Shown piece after piece: positions 2,369 through 14,518 of a stretch of 23,643 nt of DNA. Position numbers and translations under genes: made by a program. The notes beneath the pieces are model-generated. The model ran no database searches and was not told the DNA's origin. It saw only the letters and a program-made list of their open reading frames with translations. Source of the stretch: a virus; the UHGV virus genome UHGV-1377030. One strand, written 5' to 3'. Position 1 is the first letter of the stretch, and each line of letters starts with the position of its first letter.

Positions 2369-2377
2369 GGGATGTTT

Positions 2378-2710
2378 ATGACGAGCAAAGAAACCTTTAC
2401 CCATTACCAGCCGCTGGGCAACAGTGACCCGGCACATACGGCAACCGCGCCCGGCGGATTGAGTGCGAAAGCGCCTGCAATGACCCCGCTGATGCTGGAT
2501 ACCTCCACCCGTAAGCTGGTTGCGTGGGATGGCACCACCGACGGTGCTGCCGTTGGCATTCTGGCGGTTGATGCTGACCAGACCAGCACCACGCTGACGT
2601 TCTACAAGTCCGGCACGTTCCGTTATGAGGATGTGCTCTGGCCGGAGGCTGCCAGCGACGAGACGAAAAAACGGACCGCGTTTGCCGGAACGGCAATCAG
2701 CATCGTTTAA
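2378..2710 (+). CDS. D: Head decoration protein, lambda gpD-like
   Basis: [27 protein letters not shown]...[10 protein letters not shown] matches lambda gpD; ATG at 2378 is the conserved start within the 2372..2710 ORF. Confidence 0.9.
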
Positions 2711-2766: not shown

Positions 2767-3042
2767 ATGTCGATGTACACAACCGCCCAGCTGCTGGCGG
2801 CAAATGAGCAGAAATTTAAGTTTGATCCGCTGTTTCTGCGTCTCTTTTTCCGTGAGAGCTATCCCTTCACCACGGAGAAAGTCTATCTCTCACAAATTCC
2901 GGGACTGGTAAACATGGCGCTGTACGTTTCGCCGATTGTTTCCGGTGAGGTTATCCGTTCCCGTGGCGGATCCACCTCTGAATTTACGCCGGGATATGTC
3001 AAACCCAAGCACTTAGCATGGCTTTCTGAGGCTTTCGTGTAG
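2767..3042 (+). pseudogene. E: Major capsid protein E, 5' fragment truncated by the island insertion
   Basis: MSMYTTAQLLAANEQKFKFDPLFLRLFFRESYPFTTEKVYLSQ...TPGYVKPKH matches the lambda gpE N-terminus up to about nt 3012; the frame then reads 10 unrelated codons (LAWLSEAFV) and stops at 3042. The rest of E resumes at 13730. Confidence 0.85.
3002..3011. repeat. Left copy of 10-bp direct repeat (putative attL core)
   Basis: aacccaagca; identical copy at 13728..13737. Lambda-homologous E sequence ends here. Confidence 0.55.
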
Positions 3043-3139
3043 TTGCTGGTTTTTACACTTAATCTTTTGATAATAAAGAATAAATTTATCTGGCGCTTTC
3101 ACTGAATTTTCCTCGTTATCTGTGTGTTGCAATCATCTC

Positions 3140-3160
3140 TGTATTGCAGCTTGTATTGCT
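3140..3160. repeat. Tandem direct repeat tgtattgcagc / tgtattgct (putative integrase arm-type sites, left end)
   Basis: tgtattgcagc (3140..3150) and tgtattgct (3152..3160); a near-identical pair occurs at 13632..13652 in the same orientation. Confidence 0.45.
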
Positions 3161-3174
3161 TTTTGGGGCTAAAA

Positions 3175-4410
3175 ATGGCTGGCGAGAACAAACTGAGCGA
3201 CAAAGCGCTTAAAGGATATCTGGGGAAACCCAGAGAAAAGCAGATCACCATTGCTGATGGAAAGGGGCTTTCTATTCGTGTGAGTACTAAAGGGGCTGTG
3301 AGCTTTGTTTTCTTCTACAGGTTAGCAGGTGGCCGGGCTGCTCCGGTCTGGCTAACGTTGGGTAAATATCCTGATATGTCACTCAAACAGGCAAGGGAAA
3401 AGCGCGACGAGTGCCGTGGTTGGTTGGCTGACAAACGTGATCCGCGTATCCAGATTAAGATTCAGGCTGAAGAACGCTTAAAGCCGGTCACAGTGGAGGA
3501 TGCACTAAATTACTGGTATGAAAATTACTGTAAGGTGCGTCGTAAAACTCATGCTGTAACGCTTGGCAGATTTCGAAAGCATATCTTTCCCTATATCGGT
3601 CATTTGCCCGTAAATGACACTCACCTATATGAATGGCTGGACTGTTTTGACCGAATTAAACGTAATGCACCAGTTATGGCGGCGTATGTTTTTTCTGACA
3701 CTAAATTAGCTCTTCGTTTTTGTCGGGTACGCCAGTACGCGACGTGTGATGCTTTAAAGGATTTGCGCATGAGTGATGTGGGGCAGATTGCAGGTAAGCG
3801 GGATCGGGTTCTGGATGAAGCCGAACTCGGCCAGCTCTGGAAGGCAATTTTTGTCGAGCCTGATTTAAAACTAATGTCTGAATACACGCGAAAAATGTTT
3901 GTGCTTTGTACAGTATTTGGATGTCGAATGAGTGAAGCCCGATTATCAGAATGGAGCGAATGGGATCTCGAAAGTTGGGTTTGGACTGTACCAAAAGATC
4001 ACTCAAAAACTGGTGTTGAAATCGTCAGACCAGTACCTGAAATTCTACGACAGTGGGTAACGGATGTTCACGAAGAGACAAAACATACTGGTTATGTGCT
4101 GGGAAGTCTGCGAATTAGAGAAAGCGTAAGCAAGATTGGGGGGAAAATCGGTAAACGTTTGGGCCATGAAAAACAATGGTCACTACACGACCTTAGAAGA
4201 ACGCTATCTACTCATCTAAGTGATCTCGGTGTTGAATTTTATGTAGTAGAACAACTGTTAGGCCATGCGCTACCTGGCGTGGCAGGTGTTTACAACCGGA
4301 GTAAGTTTATGGCTAAAAAACTGGATGCTCTGGAACTCTGGACTACATATCTCAATAGCATCGCAGGTGCTGATTCAAAAGTGACGATCCTCAAACAAAA
4401 GGTTGGTTAA
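3175..4410 (+). CDS. int: Tyrosine recombinase / integrase, P4-type (N-terminal arm-binding domain plus catalytic domain)
   Basis: ATG at 3175 (MAGENKLSDKALKGYLG...) in the 3124..4410 ORF. N-terminus resembles the P4-like integrase arm-binding domain (DGKGLSIRVSTKGAVSFVFFYRLAG...LGKYPDMSLKQAREKRDE); the C-terminus carries HDLRRT, LLGHA and a VYNRS tyrosine region typical of tyrosine recombinases. Start at 3124 is an alternative. Confidence 0.85.
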   Translation: MAGENKLSDKALKGYLGKPREKQITIADGKGLSIRVSTKGAVSFVFFYRLAGGRAAPVWLTLGKYPDMSLKQAREKRDECRGWLADKRDPRIQIKIQAEERLKPVTVEDALNYWYENYCKVRRKTHAVTLGRFRKHIFPYIGHLPVNDTHLYEWLDCFDRIKRNAPVMAAYVFSDTKLALRFCRVRQYATCDALKDLRMSDVGQIAGKRDRVLDEAELGQLWKAIFVEPDLKLMSEYTRKMFVLCTVFGCRMSEARLSEWSEWDLESWVWTVPKDHSKTGVEIVRPVPEILRQWVTDVHEETKHTGYVLGSLRIRESVSKIGGKIGKRLGHEKQWSLHDLRRTLSTHLSDLGVEFYVVEQLLGHALPGVAGVYNRSKFMAKKLDALELWTTYLNSIAGADSKVTILKQKVG

Positions 4411-4411
4411 C

Positions 4412-4639
4412 ATGAAAAAAATGGCAATTGTTGATAAAAAGGGTCTGGAGTACATTCCTAACATTGACCGAATGATCCGTGAGAAAGAATGTCGGGAGCT
4501 AACCACTCTTGCGAACAGCACACGCTGGAAGCTGGAGAAGGAAGGAAAATTTCCTAAGCGGATCAAGATTGGTTCCACTGCTGTTGCATATCGTCTTTCA
4601 GAAGTGCAGGCATGGATTCGAGGTGAGTGGGTAGTTTAA
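4412..4639 (+). CDS. alpA: AlpA-like phage transcriptional regulator / excisionase-like HTH protein
   Basis: MKKMAIVDKKGLEYIPNIDRMIREKECRELTTLANSTRWKLEKEGKFPKRIKIGSTAVAYRLSEVQAWIRG; short MerR/AlpA-type HTH protein immediately after int with tight spacing (int stop 4408..4410, ATG 4412). Confidence 0.75.
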   Translation: MKKMAIVDKKGLEYIPNIDRMIREKECRELTTLANSTRWKLEKEGKFPKRIKIGSTAVAYRLSEVQAWIRGEWVV

Positions 4640-6691: not shown

Positions 6692-6979
6692 ATGAAAAAT
6701 AAATTTTCTGGCTTTATTGCTAGCGGTCAAGCTCATTCAAAAATCAGCCTTGGGGATATTTTCAAAGATAGCTATGGCTATCGGGTAAAGATTATTTCGG
6801 TTGATGATCGCCGTGTCCCTTATTTGCGTGATGGTTATGATTTTGAATGTGTTATGCCGCGTCAGCAGTTCGAAAGAGATTTCATTCTGGTAAAAAATTG
6901 CAAGACAGATAATCAGAGGCGTGCCGCAGGCTATATCCGCAAAATTCGGGCAATGTTAGTTGCCGGAGGTAATAAATGA
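6692..6979 (+). CDS. Hypothetical protein
   Basis: 95-aa ORF starting 3 nt after the previous stop; operon context. Confidence 0.45.
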   Translation: MKNKFSGFIASGQAHSKISLGDIFKDSYGYRVKIISVDDRRVPYLRDGYDFECVMPRQQFERDFILVKNCKTDNQRRAAGYIRKIRAMLVAGGNK

Positions 6980-7158
6980 AACGTGCTCCGAACTTAAAAT
7001 ACCAACCGCGCGACAAAATGACAGAAGTCATCATTTTTGCTGGCAGTGATGCCTAGAGCCATGCAAAAGAATGGAATGAATGGGCGGGTAAGCATATTGC
7101 AGCAGATGATACACCACCAGTAATTCTGGGTACGGAACAACTGGAAAACCTGGATGAT

Positions 7159-8796
7159 ATGCAAATTATCGATGAAGGCCGTCATTATGTGCGTGTTTAT
7201 CGTGCCGGAAAGATTGCAGAGAAAAATCTGACGAAGGTTGCGACATTACTTGCTATTGCAGGCGTAAAGGAAGCACGTTGTTACCGTAGCTTTGTTGATC
7301 GAGAGCCTGAAGACTGGACTCCGCGCCTTGTCGGCCTAAAAGCTGAAGCGGAGCATGGGGAAAGTCTGGTGATTGAACTGCCAGTGAAGAAGGCTGAGCG
7401 CAAAAATGACGAGCGTGCTTCATCTTTGGCGTTGAATCAGATGGGGGCCAGCCAGCGCGGTGAAGTTCTCCTTGCACATTACGGCGGCGAACTGGCAATC
7501 AATGCCGACTCTGACACCGTTCATCATTACAACGGCGTTGTATGGGAGCCGGTTCAGGATAAAGAGTTACAGCGTGCTATGGCGCAGATTTTCATTGATG
7601 CGGAGATCAGCTATTCGCAGAACGCTATTAAATCGGCGGTAGATACCATGAAGTTAAGTTTGCCTGTAATGGGGAATACAGCCCGTAACCTGATTGGATT
7701 CAGTAACGGGGTATTTGATACCAGAACTGGTAATTTTCGGGAGCATAACAAAAACGACTGGTTGTTAATTGCCAGTGAATTACCTTTCAGCCCACCAGCA
7801 GAGGGGGAAACGCTGGCAACACATGCGCCGAATTTCTGGAAGTGGTTGCGCCGTTCGGTGGCTGAGAATGACCGCAAGGCAGATCGCGTACTGGCGGCAT
7901 TATTCATGGTGCTGGCGAACCGGTACGACTGGCAGTTATTCATTGAGGTAACAGGGCCGGGGGGAAGTGGTAAAAGTGTGATGGCGGAGATTTGCACCAT
8001 GCTGGCGGGTAAGGCTAATACAGTATCAGCAAGCATGAAGGCGCTGGAAGATGCAAGGGAACGTGCGTTAGTGGTTGGCTTTTCGCTGATTATCATGCCG
8101 GATATGACCCGCTACGCTGGTGATGGGGCAGGGATTAAGGCCATTACAGGCGGTGACAAGGTGGCAATTGACCCGAAACACAAAGCCCCCTATTCAACGC
8201 GTATTCCGGCAGTAGTGCTGGCGGTTAACAATAACGCCATGTCATTCAGTGACCGCAGCGGGGGGATCTCACGTCGTCGGGTGATATTCAATTTTTCGGA
8301 AGTTGTACCGGAGAACGAACGCGATTCGATGCTGGCGGAAAAAATAGAAGGTGAGCTGGCGGTAGTGATTCGTCATCTGCTTACAAGGTTTGCTGATCAG
8401 GACGAAGCCAGACGCCTGTTATATGAGCAGCAGAAATCTGAAGAAGCACTGGCGATAAAGCGAGAGGGGGATTCGCTGGTGGACTTCTGCGGTTATCTCA
8501 TGGCATCGGTAATGTGTGATGGCCTGTTAGTGGGTAATGCTGAAATTGTGCCATTCAGCCCACGCAGGTATCTCTATCATGCCTATCTGGCTTATATGAG
8601 GGCACATGGGTTTGGTAAACCTGTAACACTGACGCGCTTCGGTAAAGATATGCCGGGGGCAATGGCGGAATATGGCAGGGAGTATATGAAACGGAAAACG
8701 AAGCACGGTTTGCGTTCAAACGTGACCCTGACGGAGGAATCAGAAGACTGGATGCCATCATGTGTATCGGTCACTAATGACGATAGCAAAAATTAA
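7159..8796 (+). CDS. Phage/plasmid primase-helicase, P4 alpha-like (D5 N-terminal-like region plus SF3 P-loop NTPase)
   Basis: Walker A GPGGSGKS in TGPGGSGKSVMAEICTMLAG, a downstream hydrophobic-acidic Walker B-like stretch (LVVGFSLIIMPDM), and overall resemblance to satellite/PICI primase-replicase proteins. Gene is followed directly by an iteron array. Confidence 0.8.
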   Translation: MQIIDEGRHYVRVYRAGKIAEKNLTKVATLLAIAGVKEARCYRSFVDREPEDWTPRLVGLKAEAEHGESLVIELPVKKAERKNDERASSLALNQMGASQRGEVLLAHYGGELAINADSDTVHHYNGVVWEPVQDKELQRAMAQIFIDAEISYSQNAIKSAVDTMKLSLPVMGNTARNLIGFSNGVFDTRTGNFREHNKNDWLLIASELPFSPPAEGETLATHAPNFWKWLRRSVAENDRKADRVLAALFMVLANRYDWQLFIEVTGPGGSGKSVMAEICTMLAGKANTVSASMKALEDARERALVVGFSLIIMPDMTRYAGDGAGIKAITGGDKVAIDPKHKAPYSTRIPAVVLAVNNNAMSFSDRSGGISRRRVIFNFSEVVPENERDSMLAEKIEGELAVVIRHLLTRFADQDEARRLLYEQQKSEEALAIKREGDSLVDFCGYLMASVMCDGLLVGNAEIVPFSPRRYLYHAYLAYMRAHGFGKPVTLTRFGKDMPGAMAEYGREYMKRKTKHGLRSNVTLTEESEDWMPSCVSVTNDDSKN

Positions 8797-8804
8797 ACTT
8801 ATGG

Positions 8805-9040
8805 AATAACTGTTCACCACTGTTCACCCTGTCATAAATATCTTTTATATCAGTATATTATAGGGTGAACAGTTATTTATGAACTGTTCACCAAACTATT
8901 CACTGTTCACCTTTTTGATTGTTTATTGAGCTTCAAGGGTGAACAGTGGTGAACAGTTGGTGAATAGTTTTTGTGAAACTGTTCACCCATTAACATTATG
9001 AATTAAAAGAGAAAATATCAAAAGGTGAACAGGTGAAGGG
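8805..9040. repeat. Iteron array, putative island replication origin
   Basis: About 10 copies of CTGTTCACC or its complement GGTGAACAG in both orientations: 8810..8818, 8820..8828, 8864..8872, 8884..8892, 8903..8911, 8938..8946, 8948..8956, 8959..8967 (degenerate), 8979..8987, 9024..9032, in AT-rich non-coding DNA just 3' of the helicase gene. Confidence 0.65.
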
Positions 9041-9083
9041 TTAAAACGCAAAAATTTTAATTTACTGCTGTGAGATAAAGCCT

Positions 9084-9329
9084 ATGACAGCGAAGCACAC
9101 AAAAAAATCACAATCGCACGCCCTTGATTTGACGGAACACTGGTTAAGGGTGTCGATAAAAATCATCGACCGCAACGCCGGGGAAGGATACGCGAAAGCA
9201 CATCCCGAACTGATTAGCGCATTCATGACAACGGCGGCTGCAAACTTTGCCACTCTGACCGAACGGGAGATTGCTGAAGCGGAGGAAGTGACAACAATCA
9301 ATATTAAGTCCGGAGAGCAGGCAGCATGA
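9084..9329 (+). CDS. Hypothetical protein
   Basis: 81-aa ORF; its stop overlaps the start of the next gene (ATGA). Weak SD. Confidence 0.4.
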   Translation: MTAKHTKKSQSHALDLTEHWLRVSIKIIDRNAGEGYAKAHPELISAFMTTAAANFATLTEREIAEAEEVTTINIKSGEQAA

Positions 9330-9775
9330 CGGCGCAAATATCAGTTTACGGGCGGTTGGTGGACGACCCGCAGACAAAACAGACCAGCAAGGGCACCCCC
9401 ATGACGCTGGCGCGTATGGCGGTATCACTGCCCTGCAGTCAGTCGGATGACGGTCAGGCGACGATGTGGTTATCTGTCCTGGCGTTTGGCAGACAAGCCG
9501 ACGCGCTGGCAAAGCATCACAAAGGCGAACTCCTGAGCGTGGCGGGTAATATGCAGGTGAGCCAGTGGACTGGACAGAACGGTGAAACGCGGCAGGGCTG
9601 GCAGGTTATCGCAGACAGCGTAATCAGTGCGCGAACGGTGCGACCGGGCGGCAAAAAAGGTCAACAGGGTCAGGCTACTGACGCACTGAACAGAGCAAAA
9701 CAACAGGCAGATCAGCAAGGAAGCCATCCACCAGTGGGAGATAATGAGCAATGGGGAGATGATATTCCGTTTTAA
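9326..9775 (+). CDS. Single-stranded DNA-binding protein-like (divergent SSB with acidic C-terminal tail)
   Basis: 149 aa ending in ...EQWGDDIPF, the characteristic SSB C-terminal tail (DDDIPF); a Gly/Gln-rich linker precedes it. Confidence 0.6.
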   Translation: MTAQISVYGRLVDDPQTKQTSKGTPMTLARMAVSLPCSQSDDGQATMWLSVLAFGRQADALAKHHKGELLSVAGNMQVSQWTGQNGETRQGWQVIADSVISARTVRPGGKKGQQGQATDALNRAKQQADQQGSHPPVGDNEQWGDDIPF

Positions 9776-9808: not shown

Positions 9809-9992
9809 ATTTTCCGGCATGCTACATAAATCCCGACCAAAGGGAGTGAAGATATTAACACTAATTATCCGCGCTGGAGTTGTTATCCCAAAACTTTATA
9901 CAACATTGCACTCGGTTGCATGTATTCGCATGACAAATATCGGTGATAGCATATATCCACAATTATTTTTAATGAATGCAAAGAGGATGCGT

Positions 9993-11033
9993 ATGGTTGA
10001 TTTATATTCGCCTACCCAGCTTGTACAGGTGGTTAATGCTGTAGATGTACAAAAACAACTAAATGCGTTGTTTACCAGTTTGTTTTTTACTCGCTCGGTA
10101 ATGTTTGAATCGCGCGATATTATTCTTGATACAATCGACGATCCAAATATCCCAATTGCAGCGTTTTGTTCTCCTATGGTAGGTAGTAAAGTTTCACGTG
10201 ACGAAGGGTACGAATCAAAAACAATTCGTCCAGGCTATATGAAGCCGAAAAGCAGCATTGATCCAAATAAGTTAGCTGTGCGCCCTGCTGGTGTATCACC
10301 TGAGCAATACAATGCTTTTGGAGCGCGTAATATTAAAGTTAAACAGGCGATTGTAAATCAGGCTAAAGCTATTCGTGCACGTATTGAATGGTTTGCCGTT
10401 CAGGCAATCACAACGGGGAAAAATATCATTGAGGGCGATGGTATTGAACGTTATGAGCTGGACTGGAATATAAAACCACAAAATATCATCACTCAGTCTG
10501 GCGGTACTGAGTGGTCAGGTAAGGATAAAGAAACTTTTGATCCAAATGATGATATTGAGAGCTACGCAGAATTTAGTGAGGGCGTCACTAATATCATCAT
10601 TATGGGCGGTAATGTATGGAAGAAATACCGTTCATTCAGAGCGATAAAAGAGGCTCTGGATACCCGTCGTGGTTCTAATTCCGAACTGGAAACGGCCCTT
10701 AAAGACCTTGGTGATTCGGTGAGTTTTAAAGGGTATATGGGCGATGTTGCGATTGTTGTATACAGCGGGCGTTATACCGACGAGGACGGAACTGAAAAAC
10801 ATTTCCTTGATCCTGATTTGATGGTGCTTGGCAATACGGCTCTTCAGGGGATTGTCGCCTATGGCGGTATTCAGGATCCGGAGCTAATCCGAATGGGGCT
10901 GACTAAAGCCGAACTTGCACCGAAAAACTATATTGTGCCTGGTGATCCGGCTATTGAATATGTGCAGACACATTCAGCACCACAGCCAATACCGGCCCGC
11001 ATCAATCGTTTTGTTACCGTTCGCATTGGCTAA
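9993..11033 (+). CDS. Island-encoded major capsid protein homologue (lambda gpE-like, full length)
   Basis: ATG at 9993 with an AGAGGA SD 5 nt upstream. MVDLYSPTQLVQ... aligns with the gpE N-terminus, and the C-terminal half is clearly homologous (ITQSGGTEWS, LDTRRGSNSELETA, GDVAIVVYSG, MVLGNT, GDPA), visible even at nucleotide level. Confidence 0.85.
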   Translation: MVDLYSPTQLVQVVNAVDVQKQLNALFTSLFFTRSVMFESRDIILDTIDDPNIPIAAFCSPMVGSKVSRDEGYESKTIRPGYMKPKSSIDPNKLAVRPAGVSPEQYNAFGARNIKVKQAIVNQAKAIRARIEWFAVQAITTGKNIIEGDGIERYELDWNIKPQNIITQSGGTEWSGKDKETFDPNDDIESYAEFSEGVTNIIIMGGNVWKKYRSFRAIKEALDTRRGSNSELETALKDLGDSVSFKGYMGDVAIVVYSGRYTDEDGTEKHFLDPDLMVLGNTALQGIVAYGGIQDPELIRMGLTKAELAPKNYIVPGDPAIEYVQTHSAPQPIPARINRFVTVRIG

Positions 11034-11042
11034 GGGGGAGCA

Positions 11043-11384
11043 ATGGCTACTCATTACACTGAACTCATGGCTGGCACTGAAGCACTGGTGACTACGCTGG
11101 GGATATTTTCAGCTAATAAAGGGGTAATTCCTGCATTTACGCCACTGATGCAGGAAGATGCAACAGGTGCACTGGTGGTATGGGATGGTTCGAGCGTAGG
11201 TAAAGCGGTTTATGTTTCCGCTGTACAAATCGACACCGCGAAAAAAACACAGGCTCAGGTCTATAAGACAGGTGTCTTAAATGTTGATGCTCTGAACTGG
11301 CCTGAGTCTGTAAAAGAACTGTCAGTAAAGATTGCAGCGTTTGTTGGCTCAGGTATTTCTGTTCAGCCGCTGGCTCGTGTGTAA
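11043..11384 (+). CDS. Island-encoded head decoration protein homologue (lambda gpD-like)
   Basis: 113 aa with strong SD (AAGGGGGAG). TPLMQEDATGALVVWDGSSVGKAVYVSAVQ...FVGSGISV parallels gp[30 protein letters not shown]...FAGTAISIV; similar length. Confidence 0.7.
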   Translation: MATHYTELMAGTEALVTTLGIFSANKGVIPAFTPLMQEDATGALVVWDGSSVGKAVYVSAVQIDTAKKTQAQVYKTGVLNVDALNWPESVKELSVKIAAFVGSGISVQPLARV

Positions 11385-11395
11385 AGGGGGATACA

Positions 11396-11779
11396 ATGCA
11401 GAATGATTACAATGACCTTAAGCCACTTGCCGAAATGATGTACCCGAATCCAGCTGTAGAGGAATTAAAAGCTATCGCTGACAAAATGTGTTTAAGCGAG
11501 CGCCTTGTTGATATGAATCAGGTGATGGAAATTACAACCCTGAGTCGGCGTACACTGCTAAACCTTGAGGCTAGTGGAGAGTTCCCGGAGCGTGTGCAGG
11601 TTACGGAAGGGCGTAAGGCCTGGTATTTAAGTGAAGTGATCGACTGGATAAATAATATTCCTCGCGCTTCTGAATATTGCCGCGTACCTGTCCCAAAAAA
11701 GCCAGATGCGGCGCTATGCCTCAAGATTGAGCGTGTACGCCGCAATGCACGGGATGGTCGCTATAAGCTGATTGGTTGA
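11396..11779 (+). CDS. Small HTH DNA-binding protein (AlpA/MerR-like winged helix), candidate cos-binding or packaging-redirecting protein
   Basis: 127 aa with strong SD. Central segment MEITTLSRRTLLNLEASGEFPERVQVTEGRKAWYLSEVIDWINN has AlpA-like HTH architecture; gene sits directly upstream of the island cos site. Confidence 0.55.
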   Translation: MQNDYNDLKPLAEMMYPNPAVEELKAIADKMCLSERLVDMNQVMEITTLSRRTLLNLEASGEFPERVQVTEGRKAWYLSEVIDWINNIPRASEYCRVPVPKKPDAALCLKIERVRRNARDGRYKLIG

Positions 11780-11832
11780 TGAAATTAGGGCCCGCTCTGG
11801 CTGGCGGGTCCTTTCCGGCGATCTGACAGGCT

Positions 11833-12000
11833 ACGGGGCGTCAGGCGCGCAGTTTTTTGCTATTTGTGAAAATTTTCCTGTTTAAGGCGTTTCCGTTCTT
11901 CTTCGCCGTAACTTAATGTTTTTATTAAAAACACCCCCTAAAAAGAAAGGAAACGACAGGTGCTAAAAACAGGCTTTTTGGCCTCTGTCGTTTCCTTTCT
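11833..12000 (+). other. Lambda-type cos site carried by the island (cosN-like plus cosB R3, I1 region, R2, R1)
   Basis: Sequence from ctacggggcg... through gcgtttccgttcttcttcg (R3-like, 11888..11905), agaaaggaaacgacag (R2-like, 11944..11959) and ctgtcgtttcctttct (R1-like, 11985..12000) closely parallels the left end of lambda DNA as I recall it. The R-site region is near-identical; the cosN segment differs at several positions. Confidence 0.75.
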
Positions 12001-12345
12001 CTGGTTTTGTTGCCATCCGTCGCGGTCTATCACCAGAAAAAATCTTATCCCTGAGTTGAATCAGGCCCTATTCAGAAGCGGCCAATAACGCGCCGCTAGC
12101 TTCACTTCATAGTTATGGCCTACTTCTGCGCCATTGCAATTGCTTTATGCGCCTTGATGGTGGAATATAGAGCAAGCAGTTTGCGAATAACAAAGTTTCA
12201 TATGTTTTTTGCTGTGTGGCTAGACAACTTTACAGCAGAGTTTTGTGTCAGTTCTTTATGTGTGCAAGCAAGCTTGAGGGGGAATTACTTCTGGCTGCAT
12301 CTTTGCTTAAGAACAGCAATAATTTAATCATAAGGAAATGTATAT

Positions 12346-12377: not shown

Positions 12378-13520
12378 TTAACTCCTTATTAGAGAGTAAA
12401 TTCCATCCTCTTTAAGGAAGTCTATTACTTCAAAGAATGAGATAAAGAATTCCCAAGAACCAAAAGCATATGCATGAATTTCGTAAGGTGCAAAATGGAA
12501 TCTAAATCCATCACTATTTATTGTGAACGAGTCTAAGTTACTATCCATGATACCCGTTGCAAACGTACTAATGTCGTCCTCACTTGGTTTTTCACCAGTT
12601 TTCTCCCAAAATTCACGAGCTGATTCAGAGATTATTTTTTGTTTTATCTTATTAATCGCTTCTTGCTCTTTCCCTTCGGTAAATACATCCCATAAACTAA
12701 ATTTGTATGCGTAGTCATCCTTGGTTATTACGAAATTACTAGTTTCAAAATGACTGTTAGGGTGTGCTGCTCCCGCACCATACCAATGTACGGAATGAAG
12801 GATGCTCATAACATTTTCGTTACAGTATGAGATGTTATAACTTTCATTATAGGAACTAGTGTAAGTGTGTTTATATTCTTCATCCCAATATGGTGTTCCT
12901 GGCCATAGTGATGTGCGTTCAGAAAAAATATGTAAAGCCGCTTTTCCTGAAAAGTAATCACTAATGAGTTTTGCTGATTTCGGTAATGTATGGCTTTCAA
13001 TTCTTGGATATGCTATTTCAATTTCATGCCCTGGGATCTTGTTATATTCTTCCTTGAAAACCTCGCTGCTAAAGTTAAATGGCCCATAAGTGATACCTTG
13101 AGATATTTCAAGTTTTTGTTGCGATGCTGCTAATCTTAAAGATCTAGATAAAATGTCCCAACCATCATTTCTCTTAAAATCAATGAATTGGAGCTTGCTT
13201 GATATGTAGGCGGGTACTTCGCAATCATCAATAAGTAATGGTATCACGAACACATCATCTGGTTTGTAATACTTTAGTTTATCAATGGCGTCATTTATTT
13301 CGCGGCGAATATAACCATTTTTCTGAGTGCTCACTTTGCTAAGGATAAGGATTATCAAGTTTGAATTAGCGAAGTTTTTTTGGATTTCATAATCCCAGTT
13401 TACGCCAGCGGGTATATCTTTTACATCCATCCAAGGGGAATATCCTCCACTTTTTAGCCTTTCATAGATTTCTTCAGTTATCGTTTCATCTTCTTTTGCA
13501 TGAGCAAGAAAAATTTTCAT
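12378..13520 (-). CDS. TIR-domain protein with uncharacterised ~240-aa C-terminal domain (candidate anti-phage defence cargo)
   Basis: 380-aa ORF with an AAGGAA SD 6 nt upstream. N-terminus MKIFLAHAKEDETITEEIYERLKSGGYSPWMDVKDIPAGVNW...LIILILSKVSTQKNGYIRREINDAI fits the bacterial TIR pattern (K-I/V-F-L/I-S/A-H/Y start, W at box 2, S-x-x-S...E catalytic-type segment). Strongly AT-rich relative to island and phage genes. Confidence 0.75.
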   Translation of the reverse strand: MKIFLAHAKEDETITEEIYERLKSGGYSPWMDVKDIPAGVNWDYEIQKNFANSNLIILILSKVSTQKNGYIRREINDAIDKLKYYKPDDVFVIPLLIDDCEVPAYISSKLQFIDFKRNDGWDILSRSLRLAASQQKLEISQGITYGPFNFSSEVFKEEYNKIPGHEIEIAYPRIESHTLPKSAKLISDYFSGKAALHIFSERTSLWPGTPYWDEEYKHTYTSSYNESYNISYCNENVMSILHSVHWYGAGAAHPNSHFETSNFVITKDDYAYKFSLWDVFTEGKEQEAINKIKQKIISESAREFWEKTGEKPSEDDISTFATGIMDSNLDSFTINSDGFRFHFAPYEIHAYAFGSWEFFISFFEVIDFLKEDGIYSLIRS

Positions 13521-13631: not shown

Positions 13632-13652
13632 TGTATTGCAGCATGTATTGCT
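13632..13652. repeat. Tandem direct repeat tgtattgcagc / tgtattgct (putative integrase arm-type sites, right end)
   Basis: tgtattgcagc (13632..13642) and tgtattgct (13644..13652), matching the pair at 3140..3160. Confidence 0.45.
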
Positions 13653-13727: not shown

Positions 13728-13737
13728 AACCCAAGCA
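13728..13737. repeat. Right copy of 10-bp direct repeat (putative attR core)
   Basis: aacccaagca; lambda E-homologous sequence resumes exactly here. Confidence 0.55.
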
Positions 13738-14518
13738 TGAGGTGAATCCGCAGATGACCCTGCGTCGCCTGCCGGATGAAGATCCGCAGAATCTGGCGGA
13801 CCCGGCTTACCGCCGCCGTCGCATCATCATGCAGAACATGCGTGACGAAGAGCTGGCCATTGCTCAGGTCGAAGAGATGCAGGCCGTTTCTGCCGTGCTT
13901 AAGGGCAAATACACCATGACCGGTGAAGCCTTCGATCCGGTTGAGGTGGATATGGGCCGCAGTGCGGCGAATAACATCACGCAGTCCGGCGGCACGGAGT
14001 GGAGCAAGCGTGACAAGTCCACGTATGACCCGACCGACGATATCGAAGCCTACGCGCTGAACGCCAGCGGTGTGGTGAATATCATCGTGTTTGATCCGAA
14101 AGGCTGGGCGCTGTTCCGTTCCTTCAAAGCCGTCAAGGAGAAGCTGGATACCCGTCGTGGCTCTAATTCCGAGCTGGAGACAGCGGTGAAAGACCTGGGT
14201 AAAGCGGTGTCCTATAAGGGGATGTATGGCGATGTTGCCATCGTCGTGTATTCCGGACAGTACGTGGAAAACGGCGTCAAAAAGAACTTCCTGCCGGACA
14301 ACACGATGGTGCTGGGGAACACTCAGGCACGCGGTCTGCGTACCTATGGCTGTATTCAGGATGCGGACGCACAGCGCGAAGGCATTAACGCCTCTGCCCG
14401 TTACCCGAAAAACTGGGTGACCACCGGCGATCCGGCGCGTGAGTTCACCATGATTCAGTCAGCACCGCTGATGCTGCTGGCTGACCCTGATGAGTTCGTG
14501 TCCGTACAACTGGCGTAA
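13730..14518 (+). pseudogene. E: Major capsid protein E, 3' fragment (continuation of the gene interrupted at about 3012)
   Basis: PKHEVNPQMTLRRLPDEDPQNLADPAYRRRR...DEFVSVQLA matches lambda gpE from about residue 80 to the C-terminus. An in-frame TAA at 13727..13729 precedes it, so the fragment lacks its N-terminal part. Confidence 0.85.

Follow-up and report, generated by a model that had tools for sequence, protein, structure and literature searches.

A capsid and decoration gene pair in a satellite island within the E gene of a lambda-like prophage

The island and its two head genes

The 23,643-nucleotide stretch of UHGV virus genome UHGV-1377030 analysed here (hereafter the window) covers the late region of a lambda-like prophage, with all head and tail genes on the + strand. 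The portal, S49 protease/scaffold and decoration (D) genes of this prophage lie upstream of a split major capsid gene (E), and FI, FII and the tail genes lie downstream. The GC content falls from ~0.59 to 0.32-0.50 between ~2.8 and 13.7 kb, which points to an inserted island. Two copies of the 10-bp identity block AACCCAAGCA delimit an element of 10,726 bp, in agreement with the ~10.7 kb given by an earlier sequence-only reading of the window, and the insertion lies at codon ~81 of E, after the residues KPKH (Table 1). The island carries its own homologues of E and D, here called sE and sD. With near certainty, it is a phage-inducible chromosomal island (PICI) of the 11capE type embedded in its helper prophage, and near-certainly, too, sE-sD is the conserved capsid-plus-decoration late module of enterobacterial PICIs; this arrangement is already published and not new. 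The sequence-only reading had stated that the element is not a fragment of a second prophage and that it lacks portal, protease and terminase genes. Both statements stood: the island is a phage satellite, and Pfam and PHROGs scans detected none of these genes among its open reading frames (ORFs).

The two ORFs were exactly as first read, and both homologues were complete. sE matched Pfam Phage_cap_E (PF03864) at 4.7e-41 over profile positions 4-327 of 329, and sD matched HDPD (PF02924) over its full length at 4.4e-15; PHROGs assigned them as major head protein (1.6e-88) and head decoration (1.2e-25), respectively. When aligned with the reconstituted helper E, sE was 42% identical from end to end, with 12 gap positions in 349, and sD was 38% identical to helper D. 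The divergence between sE and helper E was concentrated in the first 160 and last 60 residues; compared with lambda gpE, residues 1-160 were ~25-28% identical and residues 161-280 were 60-68% identical. By sequence, sE matched the Protein Data Bank (PDB) entries 3BQW (8.5e-121), its top hit in both sequence and fold, and 7VI9, lambda gpE (6e-77), and its AlphaFold2 model gave TM scores of 0.85 to 3BQW and 0.79-0.84 to lambda gpE. The comparison with gpE by structure prediction, proposed as a check in the sequence-only reading, thereby confirmed an HK97 fold, and the predicted fold of sE is full-length with all domains present. In the PDB, sD matched phage 21 SHP (1TD0, 6e-16) and gpD (1e-11), and its model, of moderate confidence (pLDDT 65), had TM scores of 0.67-0.78 to SHP/gpD. 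These predicted structures bear on the fold, not on shell curvature or triangulation number. Entry 3BQW was deposited as 'putative capsid protein of prophage (E. coli CFT073)' and is probably c1499, the capsid protein of the E. coli island EcCICFT073, because at 351 aa it has the length of the capsid protein encoded in the E. coli Nissle island.

Shine-Dalgarno sequences precede both genes (AGAGGA before ATG 9993 and GGGGGAG before ATG 11043), and sD begins 9 nt past the sE stop. A longer sE of 404 aa, starting at ATG 9819 with a scaffold-like N-terminal extension, was rejected because stops interrupt the frame upstream of 9993 in five diverged relatives; as that ORF is not conserved, the start was placed at 9993, in agreement with PGAP. 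At 11031-11045, TAA and two codons lie between sE and sD, which share a reading frame, and one database sequence (P0005, 463 aa) is an sE-sD fusion. Programmed read-through from E into D was considered and dropped: the frame relation does not hold in the Nissle-type clade, and only one sequence shows the fusion. The shared frame was accordingly put down to chance.

Table 1. Coordinates of the island and flanking helper features in the window.
Feature	Position	Strand	Description
Helper D (decoration)	2372-2710	+	Upstream of helper E, the phage D-then-E order
Helper E N-terminal fragment	2767-3011	+	Codons 1-81, ending ...GYVKPKH; frame reads 9 codons into the island
attL identity block AACCCAAGCA	3002-3011	+	10 bp, in helper E codons 79-82; as in 11capE
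Integration zone	3124-4639	+	Pfam Arm-DNA-bind_3, Phage_integrase, Phage_AlpA; PGAP
Tyrosine integrase ORF	3124-4410	+	PGAP start 3175; inward-pointing, clade of helper-embedded PICIs
AlpA	4403-4639	+	Pfam Phage_AlpA, after integrase
Replication zone	6976-9775	+	Primase, iteron origin, 81-aa ORF, SSB
D5_N/DUF5906/Pox_D5 primase	6976-8796	+	Premature stop at codon 27 (7054-7056); reopens at ATG 7159
Replication origin	8805-9042		Downstream of primase; ~eleven GGTGAACAG(T) iterons, both orientations
SSB	9326-9775	+	In the replication zone
Upstream element	9893-9951	+	Three (A/G)TTGCA(C/T) repeats ~11 bp apart, then GGTGATAGCA
sE, major capsid protein, lambda gpE family	9993-11033	+	346 aa; Pfam PF03864, PHROGs, PDB, fold
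sD, head decoration protein, gpD/SHP family	11043-11384	+	113 aa; Pfam PF02924, PHROGs, PDB, fold
AlpA2, second AlpA-family helix-turn-helix protein	11396-11779	+	Pfam Phage_AlpA 7.6e-09, after sD
Lambda-type cos	11790-12010	+	cosQ, cosN allele GGGCGTCAGGCG, cosB R3-I1-R2-R1; aligned to helper and lambda cos
TIR + DUF3298 cargo	12378-13520	-	Slot after cos
attR identity block AACCCAAGCA	13728-13737	+	10 bp, same as attL
Helper E C-terminal fragment	13738-14518	+	Codons 82-341, starting EVNPQM...

Gene order, satellite clade and surrounding elements

The pair was compared across 86 related loci, of which 2 are from E. coli genomes, 4 from other genera and 80 from IMG/VR. sE was directly followed by sD in all 86, with AlpA2 next in nearly all, whereas the helper in the window, lambda and all other phages examined have D before E. 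The reversal relative to lambda that was first noticed on the + strand of this window was thus confirmed. More distant satellites, such as the tRNA-Pro island of E. coli Nissle and an abgR-smrA island, also have E before D, as did every other satellite examined, and the order holds at five kinds of integration site. In Edwardsiella, a portal-embedded island has E before D, while the flanking helper at the same locus has D before E. On sequence comparison, having E ahead of D is a fixed feature of the satellite lineage rather than a rearrangement confined to this island. A PICI at fis in Lelliottia sp. SL45 (locus L091, 9001-11752) carries genes for capsid, decoration and S49 protease/scaffold in that order, the exact reverse of lambda C-D-E with the orientation kept. 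One apparent E-then-D fusion in a phage (P0079) was discarded, as its locus shows D then E, followed by FI and FII.

Islands 100% identical to this one are present in E. coli AR_0013 and IAI39. The sE-sD module, at 97-100% identity, is also shared by islands whose integrases are 25-52% identical and whose primases are 41-44% identical. It occurs at the same level of identity in nine islands upstream of the portal gene, seven of which have a visibly intact helper E, and chromosomal PICIs inserted at tRNA-Pro, abgR-smrA and fis carry the same module. Mosaicism is strong among the islands (L007-L086 from IMG/VR, and L094-L142), and a block from SSB through sE, sD and AlpA2 to cos stays at 97-100%. 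One metagenome scaffold from ENA (L143, 2801-3829) has a hybrid capsid gene in which residues 1 to ~235 are of helper-type E and the rest is 100% sE, with helper D before it and sD and AlpA2 after it. The switch point is the sole 17-nt exact match between sE and helper E, CTGGATACCCGTCGTGG (window 10656 and 14144), and the scaffold is either a true helper-satellite recombinant or an assembly chimera.

Database identities to sE ran from 99% down to ~50% and then dropped to ~42%, where lambda-type proteins begin. The proteins above this gap came from Escherichia, Cedecea, Scandinavium, Serratia, Edwardsiella, Salmonella and Lelliottia, and none of 50,697 phage records held a capsid protein more than 42.3% identical to sE. 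By these comparisons, sE is a satellite-specific clade, separate from the phage clade. Homologues of sD came from these genera too, frequently on contigs shared with sE, and the pair is kept in at least 10 enterobacterial genera; this taxonomic breadth is drawn mainly from protein database matches, the scan of genome contigs having yielded 4 loci. ORFs were intact at 78 of 79 loci for sE and 85 of 86 for sD. The dN/dS ratios were 0.06-0.08 and 0.07-0.13, respectively, with synonymous sites saturated between genera, and by these estimates both genes are under strong purifying selection. The satellite and phage clades have the identical residue at 68 conserved positions, and their per-site variability is correlated (Spearman 0.53), as would be expected if sE were constrained like a working capsid protein.

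Upstream of sE lies an element (Table 1) that is conserved in islands of E. coli, Kluyvera, Kosakonia, Superficieibacter and Cedecea, whereas the adjoining intergenic DNA is not. This suggests a putative regulated promoter/operator for sE-sD; a scan for generic sigma-70 promoters and terminators around sE gave no more sites than shuffled sequence. The ATTGCA core and the spacing of the repeats recur in a doubled motif, TGTATTGCAGC(T/A)TGTATTGCT, located just within both island ends (3140-3160 and 13632-13652), and the sE element and the ends might be targets of one DNA-binding protein, be it AlpA, AlpA2 or Int. AlpA2 itself matched a PHROG annotated as excisionase/transcriptional regulator at 2e-49.

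A complete cos follows ~400 bp downstream of sD. Its cosB is identical to the helper and lambda cosB in most columns, while its cosN, GGGCGTCAGGCG, differs from the canonical sequence of the helper, GGGCGGCGACCT; the canonical lambda cosN was absent from the window. Among E-site islands, the GGGCGTCAGGCG allele is found in most and GGGCGGAAGGCG in a few; islands inserted elsewhere carry the canonical sequence. The idea that GGGCGTCAGGCG provides satellite-private cohesive ends was weakened by its presence in intact lambda-like prophages that share 99% identity with the helper in Nu1 and A, which makes it a natural allele of this phage group. Because such prophages use GGGCGTCAGGCG, the helper terminase should cut the island cos. 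No Rpp or TerS-like gene was found after cos in this island; sibling islands have at this position either no terminase gene or a Nu1-like gene at ~72% or ~36% identity.

The remaining island genes are, in order, int, AlpA, an opposite-strand membrane protein, a YlcI/Icd-like regulatory region, DUF4222, the primase, an iteron origin, an 81-aa ORF and SSB before sE, sD, AlpA2 and cos, with an opposite-strand TIR-DUF3298 gene at the end. PGAP marks the primase with an 'internal stop' in the identical AR_0013 copy, and the gene is intact in E. coli NRG857c (606 aa); replication of the present island may be impaired, or an internal start may be used. The TIR domain matched PADLOC models of TIR-containing argonaute-associated proteins (1.6e-17). 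In sibling islands, the same slot after cos is occupied by HEPN + DUF262, DUF2971 or an Abi protein, and it looks like a swappable position for anti-phage cargo. No P4-like C4/isrK immunity RNA was matched in Rfam at the gathering threshold. The interrupted helper E forms a 91-aa ORF (2767-3042) of 82 E residues and 9 from island DNA, and a truncated N-arm peptide of helper E could arise from the late transcript before excision.

Proposed role of the pair

As the most likely reading, we tentatively propose that sE-sD is a working shell-plus-cement module that is redundant with the helper, a function read from the comparisons above and held at somewhat less than even confidence. Identity and mechanism taken jointly stand at about an even level, which blends this tentative mechanism with the near-certain identification. 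In the proposal, sE would be an HK97-fold shell protein able to assemble, and sD the trimeric cement protein that matches it. Both would be late products, expressed through read-through of the helper late operon or from an activator-dependent promoter of their own at the ATTGCA repeats. On the helper portal and protease/scaffold, the pair would assemble with or without helper gpE, and the resulting heads would be of normal size. The helper terminase would fill them from the lambda-type cos of the island, probably with concatemers of about four copies (~43 kb). In this reading, the module would supply shell independently of the helper: it would be dispensable as long as gpE and gpD from the helper abound, and of use where helper E is split, in short supply or incompatible.

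Support for a structural role comes from the intact ORFs, the dN/dS values, the conservation shared with the phage clade and the full-length fold, from the decoration gene, co-inherited at 86 of 86 loci, and from the relative that adds an S49 protease/scaffold gene after D; the complete cos downstream supports the packaging step. Lambda gpD is required only to stabilise heads holding near-full-length DNA, and it is difficult to account for a cognate decoration protein unless shells of sE form and fill with DNA. In EcCICFT073, the capsid gene c1499 and the decoration gene c1500 were described and each was deleted by Fillol-Salom et al. (2018); neither deletion restored lambda plaques or changed island transfer, and all packaged DNA was phage-sized, the size hypothesis having been tested with reference to SaPIbov5 Ccm (PMC6092414). 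As these deletions were without effect, the module must be redundant wherever gpE and gpD come from the helper, and filling with about four copies is consistent with the phage-sized DNA.

Several points weigh against the proposed module. The c1499 and c1500 deletions were free of phenotype, so that any structural role was redundant under the conditions tested (PMC6092414). The EcCICFT073 pair is only ~55% identical to the present one and its island does not lie in E, and the result may accordingly not transfer in either direction. The incorporation of sE into particles is a prediction, and the promoter and the timing of sE-sD expression are deduced from the DNA. Finally, no plaques could be obtained from the 50icd helper (Tommasini et al., PMC10111431), and virion production by the system is thus presumptive.

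A distinctly unlikely alternative is interference, in which sE and/or sD would act as decoys that poison the head assembly of the helper or of rival lambda-like phages in a dominant-negative manner, serving defence or restraint of the helper rather than as building blocks. Satellites commonly hinder their helpers and assembly-blocking defences are known (PMC10884400, PMC11364771); with 42% identity between them, sE and helper E might combine into non-productive mixed capsomers, and the island bears a defence-like TIR gene. However, a poison needs neither a cognate, co-inherited decoration protein nor phage-like conservation across the whole fold, and PADLOC gave no match to sE or sD. Deletion of c1499 or c1500 likewise failed to relieve the block on lambda plaques, although Rpp may have masked an effect (PMC6092414).

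The sequence-only reading had also offered that the pair replaces the E gene that the island disrupts. The island does split E, sE is co-oriented in the same late transcription unit, and a captured intact copy was suggested by Tommasini et al. to stand in for the interrupted gene before excision (PMC10111431). As the dedicated reason for the pair, substitution for E in the composite prophage is nevertheless quite improbable. The 97-100% identical module lies upstream of the portal gene at seven loci with an intact helper E and in chromosomal PICIs, and the module type also occurs in the portal-embedded Edwardsiella island; since the same module occurs where helper E is intact, replacement is not the general reason for it. 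Moreover, sD is retained although helper D is intact here, and an unexcised composite of helper plus 10.7 kb would exceed the lambda packaging limit. Replacement of E may be a local benefit.

Redirection of helper proheads to a smaller capsid, the other function offered in that reading, fared less well and is judged very unlikely. Here, sE would co-assemble with or replace gpE in the manner of SaPIbov5 Ccm, and the small heads would fit the island but exclude the helper genome. The island is ~1/5 of the helper in size, there are precedents in the SaPIbov5 major capsid protein (MCP) homologue and in a capsid-encoding Pasteurella PICI with small heads (PMC6092414), and volume scaling gives an estimate of ~two or one 10.7-kb copies in a T=4 or T=3 lambda-type shell, respectively. 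Against this, the DNA of EcCICFT073 was all phage-sized, and deletion of its capsid or decoration gene left both interference and transfer as they were (PMC6092414); the paper on capsid-forming PICIs (cfPICIs) also places this E. coli PICI family in large capsids. sE and gpE differ by small indels only (the 12 gap positions in 349), and redirection is not needed, as four island copies (~43 kb) fit a normal lambda head.

That the pair is a functionless relic, or was copied recently from prophage head genes by recombination, as the lack of a deletion phenotype in EcCICFT073 might suggest (PMC6092414), is almost certainly wrong given the dN/dS of 0.06-0.13, ORFs intact at nearly all loci in at least 10 enterobacterial genera, saturated synonymous sites, 42% amino acid identity to helper E and a longest exact nucleotide match of 17 nt; the sequence-only reading was right to treat sE as a distinct homologue.

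Returning to the shell-plus-cement module, a stronger version is that these islands are shell-providing, with sE and sD forming the actual shell of the transducing particle on the portal, protease/scaffold, terminase and tails of the helper. We regard this version as unlikely. If true, shell-providing islands would be a step between classical PICIs, which steal all head parts, and cfPICIs; satellite-type shells would be the only shells until an E-site island excises, tying helper head production to the satellite; and the conserved ATTGCA-repeat element would time shell expression.

Many enterobacterial satellites keep a capsid-decoration pair under strong purifying selection, yet the only deletion experiments were free of phenotype. 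Islands embedded in E are informative on the role of the pair, as helper E is unavailable until excision. If sE builds particles, capsid-stealing and capsid-making satellites form a continuum; if it does not, the pair must have a non-structural role. For annotation, an E-then-D pair beside int-alpA-primase marks a satellite, not a degraded prophage.

Relation to known satellites

The prototype of this island type, Eco567.11capE in E. coli NRG857c, was reported by Tommasini, Mageeney and Williams (2023) at the site E:Phage_cap_E_80, together with the 10-bp identity block, 201 instances at the E site and a shared 258-bp cos-like segment (PMC10111431). The word 'decoration' is absent from the main text of that paper, and cosN was not found in it (PMC10111431). 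The present island shares with the prototype the E site, the 10-bp block, the backbone of int, alpA, primase, SSB, capsid, decoration, AlpA-like and cos, and 99.3% nucleotide identity over 83% of its length. It differs in its cargo (TIR-DUF3298 instead of HEPN + DUF262) and in the premature stop of its primase. Added here are the E-then-D order as a lineage trait, the satellite clade of sE, the figures for purifying selection, the presence of the module in islands with helper E intact, the lambda-type cos downstream and the conserved upstream element. No later functional study of PICI capsid or decoration genes was found in the literature searched.

The four-zone plan of Gram-negative PICIs (integration, Bro/regulatory, replication, late) was found within the 10.7 kb: Int/AlpA, then Icd-like/YlcI, then primase-ori-SSB, then capsid-decoration-cos. 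The island also lies in the 10-20 kb size range of such PICIs and, like them, has no tail or lysis genes. SatelliteFinder counts a capsid gene among the core components of PICIs in Proteobacteria, and the likeness to islands carrying capsid homologues, drawn in the sequence-only reading, proved apt for PICIs. EcCICFT073 has the same E-then-D pair after primase-SSB in a PICI, and its pair belongs to the same satellite-specific clade; the copy in Nissle, a strain related to CFT073, is ~55% (sE) and ~54% (sD) identical to that of the present island. In contrast, EcCICFT073 is chromosomal rather than prophage-embedded and has Rpp and a cos without lambda R sites, whereas the present island has a full lambda-type cosB and lacks the Rpp/TerS-like gene with which EcCICFT073-like PICIs redirect the helper terminase to a PICI-specific cosB.

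The cfPICIs (e.g., EcCIEDL933) are likewise int-alpA-primase satellites with their own HK97-fold capsid protein, but they also encode protease, portal, head-tail connectors, HNH, TerS and TerL and build their own small capsids. The present island has shell and decoration genes only, and Pfam and PHROGs scans of its ORFs detected no member of the additional cfPICI set (portal, protease, connectors, TerS/TerL, HNH). The capsid genes of PICIs and cfPICIs form separate clades (PMC10085698). SaPIbov5 Ccm, an MCP homologue, and P4 Sid and Psu, the latter a decoration-like protein, are similar in that small cos-packaged satellites act on the helper capsid, but they have no sequence relationship to sE or sD. 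The analogy with P4 drawn in the sequence-only reading failed on gene content, as no match to the Psu, Sid or Delta families was found in the island by Pfam and PHROGs; P4 shares with it only the D5_N/Pox_D5 primase and AlpA, and the island does not qualify as a P4-like satellite. Overall, sE and sD have the same Pfam families and folds as lambda gpE and gpD and phage 21 SHP, with sE 42% identical to gpE, and they are set apart from lambda by its D-then-E order and by a clade that, in this sample, is confined to satellites.

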